From a virus: a DNA stretch of 40,035 bases. Position 1 is the stretch's first letter. Every line of letters starts with the position of its first letter. A program made the translations under genes and the position numbers. Of this stretch, positions 35,468 to 37,456 are shown piece by piece. Where the stretch lies: UHGV virus genome UHGV-0090445. One strand, 5' to 3'. Below the pieces are notes generated by a model that was given only the letters and a program-made list of their open reading frames with translations, did not search any database and was not told the DNA's origin.

Positions 35468-36175
35468 ATGGATTTGAATAAATTCGATGAGCCATTCAGC
35501 CACGAAGATATCGAATGGCGAATACAGCAAAGCGGTAAAACACGCGATGGCAAGGTGTGGGCTATGGTGCTGGCTTATGTCACGAACCGGGCAATCATGA
35601 AACGCCTGGACGATGTTTGCGGCAAAGCAGGATGGCGCAATGAATACCGCGATATTCCCAACAACGGCGGAGTTGAATGCGGCATATCAATCAAGATTGA
35701 TTCCGAATGGGTAACCAAATGGGATGCTGCTGAAAACACGCAGGTAGAAGCCGTCAAAGGTGGTCGTTCCGGTGCAATGAAGCGCGCTGCCGTTCAGTGG
35801 GGAATCGGTCGGTATCTGTATAACCTTGAGGAAGGTTTCGCACAAACATCTCTCGATAAAAAGCATGGGTGGCACAGGGCAAAACTGAAGGATGGAACAG
35901 GATTTTACTGGCTCCCTCCATCGCTTCCGGGATGGGCAATCCCAGCATCAGATAACAAACCATCACCAGAAAATATCAACCAGAAATCTCCATCGGTTGA
36001 CTGCGAACAAATCCTGAAAGACTTCAGCGATTATGCGTCAACAGAAACTGACAAGAAAAAACTCATCGAGCGTTATCAGCATGACTGGCAATTAATGGCT
36101 GGCAATGAGGATGCGCAGGCTAAATGCGTTCAGGTAATGAACATCAGAGTTAACGAACTAAAACAGGCGGCATAA
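35468..36175 (+). CDS. Single-strand annealing protein: Rad52/Sak-like N-terminal domain fused to P22 Erf-like C-terminal tail
   Basis: 235 aa; N-terminal region (GKVWAMVLAYVTNRAIMKRLDDVCG...AMKRAAVQWGIGRYLYNL) Rad52/Sak-like; C-terminal ...QILKDFSDYASTETDKKKLIERYQHDWQLMAGNEDAQAKCVQVMNIRVNELKQAA matches remembered P22 Erf C-terminus. Confidence 0.8.
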   Translation: MDLNKFDEPFSHEDIEWRIQQSGKTRDGKVWAMVLAYVTNRAIMKRLDDVCGKAGWRNEYRDIPNNGGVECGISIKIDSEWVTKWDAAENTQVEAVKGGRSGAMKRAAVQWGIGRYLYNLEEGFAQTSLDKKHGWHRAKLKDGTGFYWLPPSLPGWAIPASDNKPSPENINQKSPSVDCEQILKDFSDYASTETDKKKLIERYQHDWQLMAGNEDAQAKCVQVMNIRVNELKQAA

Positions 36176-36643
36176 ATGTCTCACTTGGACGGAATTATTA
36201 AAAGATTCGAGTCCAGCTACAAAGTTAATGAAACAACAGGTTGCTGGGAGTCTACCTATTCAAAAAACAAAGGAGGATACACAAAATTTGTAGCCTTTGG
36301 CGTAACAATGCTTTCTCATCGGGTTGCTTTTGAGCTTTATCACTCCCCCATTCCATCTGGGAAGATGGTTTGCCACAAATGCGATAACCCATGCTGCGTT
36401 AATCCTGAACATCTCTTTTTAGGTAGCGCGCAAGAAAACATGGACGACAAGATAGCAAAAGGAAGGCATCGTGGAGCCAAGAAAGGTCATGCTCATCATG
36501 GTGCAAAATTAACAGAGTGGCAGGTTATAGAAATTAGGAAAAGACTCTCTGAAAAAGAGAGTCAGTACAAGATAGCAAAAGACATGGGTGTATCTCAATC
36601 AATTATAAGCAACATAAAAACTGGCAAGAGGTGGAGAAAATGA
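36176..36643 (+). CDS. HNH homing endonuclease with C-terminal HTH-like region, insertion between annealing protein and SSB
   Basis: 155 aa; Cys/His-rich HNH-like core ([26 protein letters not shown]); C-terminal [22 protein letters not shown]; stop overlaps ssb start (ATGA). Confidence 0.8.
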
Positions 36644-37146
36644 GTTCTCGCGGGATAAATAAGGTGATTATCCTTGGTCGGGTAGGACAAGACCCGGAAG
36701 TTCGATACTCACCATCAGGAACAGCGTTCGCTAACCTGACAATAGCCACGTCAGAACAATGGCGAGATAAAAATACTGGCGAGCAAAAGGAATTGACTGA
36801 ATGGCATCGTGTTGCTGTATCCGGGAAACTGGCTGAGGTCGTGGGGCAGTATGTGAAAAAAGGTGATCAGATTTATTTCGAGGGAATGCTGAGAACCAGA
36901 AAGTGGAAAGACCAGTCAGGGCAAGACCGTTACACAACCGAGGTTCATGTCGGAATTAATGGCGTGATGCAAATGCTTGGCAGCATTGGCGACAGCAAAC
37001 AACAAGCAGCCAGCAGGCAATCACAGAAGCCACAGCAGCAATCATCACCAGCACAACACAACGAACCTCCGATGGATTTTGACGACGATATACCCTTTGC
37101 ACCAGTAACTCTCCCCTTCCCTCGTCACGCTATTCACGCAATTTAA
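36640..37146 (+). CDS. ssb: Single-stranded DNA-binding protein with C-terminal extension past the DDDIPF tip
   Basis: [23 protein letters not shown]...[15 protein letters not shown]...[18 protein letters not shown] close to E. coli-type SSB; ends ...MDFDDDIPF then 15 further residues ([15 protein letters not shown]). Confidence 0.85.
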
Positions 37147-37159
37147 TCAGGAGAAAATC

Positions 37160-37456
37160 ATGCCAGCGCCTCAGTATGGTGCGGATGACCCGCGCCGCTG
37201 TTCCGGCAATTCCGTATCGGAGGTGCTGGATAAATTCAGGAAAAACTACGACCGGATAATGTCGCTACCGCAGGAAACGAAAGAGGAAAAGGAATTTCGC
37301 CATTGTATATGGCTTGCAGAGAAAGAAGAACGCGAGCGAATTTACCAGACATCAATCCGACCATTCCGCAAAGCCACATATACCAACTTCCCTGAATATA
37401 TCGACCCGCGCCTGCGTAATTACCGCTCACGATATGGCGCTATCAGTAATGACTGA
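37160..37456 (+). CDS. Hypothetical protein (98 aa)
   Basis: ORF from track, co-directional early-left gene; no family recognised. Confidence 0.5.

Follow-up and report, generated by a model that had tools for sequence, protein, structure and literature searches.

Acidic tip made internal by a short conserved extension in single-stranded DNA-binding proteins of a P22-like phage and other mobile elements

[quoted passage not shown] The structurally characterised partners of the tip, namely ExoI, RecQ, chi, PriA and RecO, bind the alpha-carboxylate of the last Phe. In phage HK620, the C-terminal tip of the SSB recruits the cognate recombinase Sak4 (PMC5928155). The present analysis concerns the ssb gene of the virus genome UHGV-0090445 (a DNA stretch of 40,035 nucleotides, hereinafter the window), a P22-like mosaic phage or prophage that carries the gene within its early-left recombination module. 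The initial annotation of this gene had claimed that the DDDIPF tip of the encoded protein is made internal by 15 further residues, and the open reading frame (ORF) and its translation confirm this. The window protein belongs to a large class of ssDNA-binding proteins of mobile elements in which the tip is strongly selected yet internal and is followed by a conserved motif of 14–16 residues.

According to the Pfam analysis, residues 6–104 of the window protein match the SSB family PF00436 (E = 1.7e-36). The nearest solved chains identified by the PDB search were bacterial SSBs (E down to 1.8e-58), which aligned over residues 1–115. E. coli SSB 1eqq, a chain that terminates in ...DDDIPF, was matched at E = 6.7e-57, and, judging from this strong match, the window protein would form a homotetramer and bind ssDNA. 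In the AlphaFold2 monomer model, obtained with 35 homologues, the OB fold is confident (predicted local distance difference test score, pLDDT, of ~70–88 across residues 7–113), and the linker, tip and extension (residues 114–168) show pLDDT < 50 and are predicted to be disordered. The disordered linker is followed, as in other members of the SSB family, by the acidic tip D-F-D-D-D-I-P-F. However, the tip is not located at the extreme C-terminus with a free Phe carboxylate, since 15 residues follow the Phe. The ssb gene starts with the ATG at 36640, with GGTGGAG just upstream, and stops at 37144–37146; its last 27 codons (37066–37146) comprise the tip, the extension and the stop codon.

Comparison with the SSBs of related phages showed that the relatives carry the same extension, with no residue changed in HK75 and epsilon34. 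The extended SSB is annotated in phages HK75, mEp235, mEpX2, epsilon34, g341c, NM-3, CP-1639, HZ41 and ECP1; HK75, mEp235, mEpX2 and epsilon34 are cultured phages. Nucleotide identity to the window ssb was 99.6% for HK75, 88.8% for epsilon34, g341c and NM-3, and ~73% for HZ41 and ECP1. A pattern back-translated from 14 tail residues found the tail in at least 120 IMG/VR contigs. The tail-coding block was also detected, with 95–100% nucleotide identity, in 406 of the 5426 complete E. coli genomes, and in 299 of these 406 genomes it is joined to the tip in a gene whose PGAP label is simply ssb. At least 80% of the query consisting of tip and extension was covered by 156 of 634 matching phage records and by 124 of 684 matching plasmid records. 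Extended SSBs are abundant in the databases and are uniformly labelled 'ssb'. No description of the extension, either as a motif or as an extended SSB tail, was found in open-access full text; it is unmentioned in the HK620 Sak4/SSB paper (PMC5928155), the epsilon34 genome paper (PMC2629481) and the Hna paper, and the search of solved structures found it in no PDB chain.

The tip and the extension were treated in this analysis as one composite motif class. Its general form is D-[DE]-I-P-F-[AS]-P-[VIL]-[GT]-L-[PQ]-[FY]-x(3-4)-hydrophobic end, with an extension of 14–16 residues, and the consensus over 70 distinct extensions is IPF-[AS]-P-[VIL]-[GT]-L-[PQ]-[FY]-[PSGN]-x-x-x-[ILM]-[HYN]-[ACVS]-[ILMV]. 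The window tail fits this motif, with D-[DE]-I-P-F, then [AS]-P-[VIL]-[GT]-L-[PQ]-[FY], then 7–9 residues with a hydrophobic end and the stop, and its gene belongs to a mobile element (a P22-like phage or prophage, in the module for recombination) and is not the primary ssb gene of the host. A scan with the extension only (APIGLQYP) gave 40 matches, of which 26 were located 6 residues ahead of a stop codon and the remaining 14 were internal, by chance. Since 25 of the 26 near-stop matches directly follow D[DE]IPF (the 26th being an 18-codon remnant), the tip and the extension form one unit. D[DE]IPF precedes the extension even in proteins with otherwise different tips (VYWDNDIPF, TYPDDIPF).

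A scan with a profile of the tip and extension showed the presence of the motif, outside its Enterobacteriaceae variant, in Proteus, Providencia, Moellerella, Xenorhabdus, Mixta and Tatumella, as well as in Sodalis, Pectobacterium, Brenneria, Vibrio and Pseudoalteromonas. In these genera (listed for all but Moellerella), the tip is followed by AP[IVL]GL[QP][YF]; the loci in the same scan whose frame stops at IPF include apparent host ssb genes. A search of 1.84 billion representatives found 37 proteins with the motif, and the full-length ones among them have several different bodies. The carriers include PF00436 SSBs and members of phrog_743, phrog_4477, phrog_2544 and phrog_3284. The phrog_4477 carriers include proteins of 409–413 aa from the rV5-like phages PVP-SE1 (gp39) and ABPH49, and the gene of the phrog_3284 carrier lies beside a chimallin gene in a phage contig. 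The matches of the PHROG profiles end at the tip in the motif-carrying proteins, which suggests that the extension was added on in only some of the family members. As far as sequence comparison indicates, the motif is typical of gamma-proteobacterial ssDNA-binding proteins encoded by mobile elements, namely phages, phage-plasmids, plasmids and integrative elements.

The hypothetical proteins of lytic phages from phrog_4477, phrog_3284 and phrog_2544 have a host-like tip and extension after a long Q/P-rich linker (L215, 1855–3084, PVP-SE1 gp39; L216, 1840–3081, ABPH49; L213, 6001–6807; L214, 6001–7221). PHROGs lists these three families as function unknown; their motif-carrying members are probably unrecognised ssDNA-binding proteins.

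Among the 120 best homologues of the window SSB (65–91% identical; Klebsiella, Citrobacter, Enterobacter, Phytobacter, Pluralibacter, Kluyvera), ~110 retain the tail with conservative substitutions (among them HAIYAI, HTIHVI and SPVGLQYGKHRVYAL), in contrast to a freely varying linker. In the homologue alignment A3, the linker is the most variable and gap-rich part, and P143, P144, F147, D148, P152 and F153 are invariant. The ratio of nonsynonymous to synonymous differences per site (pN/pS) of the tail was 0.24 over 35 distinct DNA versions and 0.32 with one sequence per distinct peptide. Its overall range was ~0.24–0.35 at pS of ~0.4–0.7, with synonymous sites near saturation. The last eight tail codons, which are free of any constraint from the search patterns, gave 0.23–0.35, and the tip gave 0.03–0.05. 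In the tail region, no credible Rfam match was found, and there was no terminator- or promoter-like site within or beside the tail; the RNA of this region has less structure than its shuffled versions (z = +2.06). A DNA- or RNA-level element in the tail was ruled out by the Rfam, terminator/promoter and folding results. The sole Rfam hit, located elsewhere in ssb, was a weak match to RF01097 (Gag/pro frameshift site) at 36823–36848 of the plus strand (21.6 bits at a gathering score of 43, E = 0.74), which is most likely due to chance. On these comparisons, the extension is a genuine, selected part of the protein, with selection acting on the peptide and not on the DNA. The suggestion of the initial annotation that the extension deliberately changes the interactions of SSB with its partners agrees with this selection on the peptide; the change of partner itself is what we infer.

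In phages Sf6 and Huey, ssb ends canonically (...NFDDSDIPF and ...NFDDEIPF, respectively, each followed by a stop), and next to it lies an HNH endonuclease gene that ends in the SSB tail (1584–2546 in L002, Sf6; 1985–2929 in L124, Huey). The HNH proteins, gp26 in the case of Sf6, have the same 14 C-terminal residues as the SSB tail; this sharing had already been noted by the annotators of Sf6. At 98% identity to that of the window, the ssb body of Huey differs only in recoded tip codons and in ~440 bp of HNH gene placed exactly between tip and extension. In both phages, the recoded tip codons are a copy that belongs to the HNH cassette (NFDDEIPF and a stop in Huey). At the tip/extension site, the gp26-type HNH gene is without its own stop codon, and its frame continues into the SSB extension. 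There is one tail per locus, either on the SSB or, in 24–25 of 123 loci, on the HNH protein after a normally ended SSB. Because homologues of gp26 located elsewhere end natively in ...WHKHNKPIY(P)(D/E)xx, without the tail, the tail is best regarded as native to SSB, the gp26-type HNH gene having apparently gained it through in-frame insertion. The boundary HNH gene would be an example of a selfish element interrupting a host gene where a motif begins or ends. The ssb locus is also represented in public genomes by chimeric ORFs (P0168, P0171, P0181, P0210, P0217, P0220, P0122), which combine an SSB N-terminus with an HNH C-terminus, an HNH N-terminus with an exonuclease, or an Ead/Ea22-like N-terminus with the tip and extension. 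Their occurrence suggests that deletions often join the closely packed genes of this locus.

Several explanations would leave the extension without a role in the SSB protein. The initial annotation had considered a sequencing error or a loss of the stop codon. The sole support for an error of sequencing or assembly, or for a stop loss private to the window genome, is the oddity of the internal DDDIPF itself, whereas the same frame and stop recur in many independently sequenced phages, prophages and bacterial records and the peptide is kept across genera with diverged codons. Both variants are ruled out by these independent records, and the probability left to them is negligible. The tail could instead be the native C-terminus of the Sf6 gp26-type HNH protein, joined to ssb through loss of the HNH gene. 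This would account for the 14 residues shared with Sf6 gp26 and the Huey HNH protein, and the locus does yield deletion fusions (the SSB-HNH and HNH-exonuclease chimeras P0168, P0171, P0181 and P0210). Yet the HNH homologues outside the tip/extension site are tail-less, and tailed SSB-like proteins occur in Vibrio, Proteus, rV5-like phages and the chimallin-phage contig, with no HNH gene of this type among the annotated or called neighbours. An origin from the HNH protein was rejected on these two grounds and is extremely improbable. A passive mosaic junction, in which the tail is translated by accident and its DNA is conserved as a boundary sequence, a homing target or signals of the next gene, is very unlikely and already largely refuted. 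It was suggested by a 46-bp block that is nucleotide-identical among P22-like and lambdoid phages of E. coli, Shigella and Salmonella (also in L001, L002 and L003) despite ssb bodies that differ by 11–27%. Mosaic joints are located exactly at the edges of this block, at the left edge with the HNH gene of Sf6 and Huey and at the right edge with the Rv2179c-like exonuclease gene that replaces abc2 in epsilon34, and the same block terminates two unrelated proteins, SSB and HNH. However, distant relatives hold the peptide though most synonymous sites have changed, many different genes lie downstream of the motif, which is also present in lytic phages and plasmids without abc2, and DDIPF invariably precedes the extension in the same frame. 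The folding, Rfam, terminator and promoter results given above argue against this reading as well. Apart from this question, the behaviour of the 46-bp block resembles that of the 'boundary sequences' in the Sf6 annotation.

The gene order at E. coli-type loci is consistently Rad52-like annealase - [HNH_3] - SSB - [gp26-type HNH] - [Rv2179c-like exonuclease] - Abc2, where brackets mark genes that may be absent. The Rad52-like gene lies just upstream of ssb in 100+ related loci, and the diverged Klebsiella, Phytobacter and metagenomic versions are also downstream of a Rad52-like gene. Elsewhere, the gene upstream of the extension carrier encodes ERF, AAA_24 (Sak4-like), RecT+YqaJ, RdgC or DUF3577, with a topoisomerase gene further upstream in the DUF3577-type loci, and some carriers are located in lytic-phage regions without a recognisable recombinase. 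The idea that the tail docks a neighbouring gene product (the Rad52-like annealase, Abc2 or the exonuclease of the epsilon34 type) is unsupported, as these neighbours vary. The extension is also unlikely to be specific to one recombinase, because it accompanies Rad52-like, ERF, Sak4-like and RecT partners or none. With no neighbour on the element being constant, a partner dedicated to the phage is less likely than a conserved factor of the host or an effect on the tip itself. In the Klebsiella prophages with an extended SSB, a DNA polymerase III theta-like (HOT-type) protein is encoded a few genes downstream (7461–7718 in L129–L131).

The following mechanism may be proposed. Since the characterised partners grip a free terminal carboxylate, which is no longer at the tip, the extension would weaken or abolish the canonical docking of host SSB-interacting proteins. 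The tip and extension together would provide a longer hydrophobic epitope (P-[VI]-[TG]-L-[PQ]-[FY] and the hydrophobic end) for some conserved partner, most likely a host protein, because no constant element-encoded neighbour was found. The net effect would be a switch of partner specificity for ssDNA coated by the phage SSB in Rad52-like/Abc2-mediated recombination. On balance we lean towards this reading, in which canonical docking would suffer and the longer epitope would probably be used for a different interaction, although several points weigh against it. Its functional step is an inference. The extension is dispensable for viability, as Sf6, Huey and ES18 propagate with an SSB ending in IPF, and the strong selection on the internal tip could reflect a post-translational removal of the extension. 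The pN/pS values come from a few dozen short sequences, the first seven tail codons of which were partly set by the search patterns. Within E. coli, Shigella and Salmonella phages, conservation of the tail is indistinguishable from recent recombinational spread, because the tail-coding DNA is almost invariant in this lineage (the 45 nt are identical in 96 of the 123 loci). Finally, the disordered tail of the AlphaFold2 monomer model carries no information on binding.

Two other functional readings should be weighed against the switch of partner. The extension may be a pro-peptide or degron that is removed or targets the protein for proteolysis, so that the working SSB has a free DDDIPF and the tail sets its timing or amount. 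The very strong purifying selection on a tip that is internal would fit such processing, as would the HNH-split alleles, whose product is a canonical SSB and whose phages are viable, and the small or hydrophobic residues in which the extensions terminate (...HAI, ...YVI, ...NCM). The C-terminal RRKKAI of MuA is a ClpX recognition signal (C-motif-2), to which the window-type end ...RHAIHAI is only loosely similar. The best conserved part of the extension is, however, its N-terminal half, AP[VI][GT]L[PQ][FY], and not the extreme C-terminus; the C-terminal halves differ by clade (PRHAIHAI vs PALLNCM), which is a poor fit to one protease signal, and no protease with a specific cut at F|AP is known to us. 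This reading is therefore considered unlikely. A more specific version of the partner switch is recruitment of the beta-clamp, in which P-V-T-L-P-F or P-I-G-L-Q-Y would act as a hexapeptide clamp motif and tether the host clamp to SSB-coated DNA. The clamp-binding hexapeptides have the form Q-L-x-L-x-L/F, as in QLSLPL of Hda, QLVLGL of Pol IV and QTSMAF of Pol III epsilon. The pattern x-[VIL]-x-L-x-[FY] resembles this class, a likeness in sequence pattern, and the tail is disordered and near the C-terminus, as are many clamp-binding motifs. The hydrophobic positions V, L and F of the window tail fit, but the signature Gln is missing, a nearly invariant Pro taking position 1 (65 of 70 extensions). 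Moreover, DDIPF precedes the extension in every case, although a clamp motif acting on its own could do without it, and the conserved residues beyond the hexapeptide are left unexplained; recruitment of the clamp thus appears distinctly unlikely.

A wider form of the partner-specificity switch can be put forward only tentatively and is more doubtful than probable. In this form, a portable docking module of mobile elements, which phages with differing lifestyles, plasmids and integrative elements would add to canonical SSBs and to four further PHROG families, would cap the SSB tip, uncouple ssDNA from the host SSB interactome and, through the extended epitope, bind or block one conserved host factor, with homing endonucleases inserting at the boundary between tip and extension. 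A capped tip would imply a novel partner, a novel way of recognising the tip, or its unmasking in a regulated step. Any of these would bear on how phages, plasmids and islands keep the nucleases and RecA loaders of the host away from their intermediates of recombination and replication, on the choice of SSB/annealase pairs for recombineering, and on how SSB-sensing defence systems might discriminate phage SSBs. The HNH insertions of Sf6 and Huey provide natural 'tail-less' controls.

The features of the window locus are listed in Table 1.

Table 1. Features of the ssb locus of the window (positions in the 40,035-nucleotide stretch)
Feature	Position	Strand	Basis or remark
Rad52-like single-strand annealing protein ('Erf-like' in relatives' annotation)	35468–36175	+	Pfam PF04098, E = 2.1e-25
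HNH_3-family endonuclease gene	36176–36643	+	Pfam PF13392, E = 1.1e-13
ssb gene, 168-aa bacterial-type SSB with C-terminal extension	36640–37146	+	ORF, translation, Pfam PF00436, HK75 match
Recoded first seven ssb codons	36640–36660	+	Alignment vs HK75
OB-fold DNA-binding/oligomerisation domain, residues 1–113	36640–36978	+	AlphaFold2 strand pattern, PDB SSB alignment
Q/S/P-rich disordered linker, residues 114–142	36979–37065	+	Translation, pLDDT < 50
Canonical SSB acidic tip, residues 143–153, internal here, not C-terminal	37066–37098	+	
15-residue extension, residues 154–168	37099–37143	+	Enterobacteriaceae variant of the wider motif
46-bp conserved block, end of extension and stop	37101–37146	+	Nucleotide comparison of phages
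abc2, anti-RecBCD protein 2	37160–37456	+	Pfam PF11043, E = 3.8e-61; 13 bp past the ssb stop

The genes of the window follow the order Rad52-like annealase, HNH_3 endonuclease, ssb, abc2, and this arrangement with the HNH_3 gene is shared by 7 of 123 related loci. The HNH_3 gene is placed exactly between the annealase stop and the ssb ATG, which its own stop overlaps; in HK75 and ES18, where this gene is absent, the annealase stop joins the ssb ATG directly. The HNH_3 protein is 35% identical to gp47 of ES18, whose gene flanks ssb on the opposite side. The seven codons at the start of ssb are ATGAGTTCTCGCGGGATAAAT (MSSRGIN) in the window vs ATGGCAAGCAGAGGCGTAAAT (MASRGVN) in HK75, and the BLAST match of the window ssb to HK75 begins only at gene base 17. 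The HNH_3 gene, whose family is unrelated to the gp26 type, shows two properties of a homing gene, namely an HNH domain and a presence/absence polymorphism at a precise site between collinear genomes. These data are suggestive of a homing-endonuclease cassette with an immunised target.

The annealase of the window matches Pfam Rad52_Rad22 rather than ERF. In the 'Erf-like' annealase of epsilon34, only the C-terminal 56 residues resemble P22 Erf (PMC2629481). Because of the Rad52_Rad22 match and the limitation of Erf similarity to 56 residues, one C-terminal domain is common to different annealase cores.

In comparison with known systems, the window protein is closest to the bacterial homotetrameric SSB (PF00436; E. 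coli SSB, 1eqq/4mz9), which it resembles in the OB fold, the Q/P-rich disordered linker and the tip sequence. However, E. coli SSB and the presumed host SSBs from the genome scan end at the Phe, whereas the window SSB has 15 conserved residues beyond it. Free-standing phage HNH homing genes insert beside or inside conserved genes with a recoded flank. The HNH genes of Huey and Sf6 at the tip/extension boundary do likewise, and the window HNH_3 gene resembles them in its position at the ssb start with recoded first codons. Unlike free-standing homing genes, the gp26-type HNH gene has no stop codon of its own and continues into the SSB extension; to our knowledge, such read-through of an HNH gene into the tail of its target gene has not been described previously. 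The tail is also comparable with docking motifs of the hubs of bacterial replication (the SSB C-terminal tip; the beta-clamp motifs QL[SD]LF and QLxLxL), being likewise short, disordered, C-terminal and hydrophobic or aromatic and occurring on unrelated scaffolds, and its spacing resembles that of the hexapeptide clamp motif. It differs from these motifs in the absence of Gln, in its length of ~20 residues including the tip and in never occurring without DDIPF. Finally, the arrangement of HK620 is similar in that the early-left operon is P22-like and a phage ssb gene has abc2 and a gene for single-strand annealing as its neighbours, but the HK620 SSB has a free NDYPPF tip and no extension, whereas the tip of the window SSB is capped.

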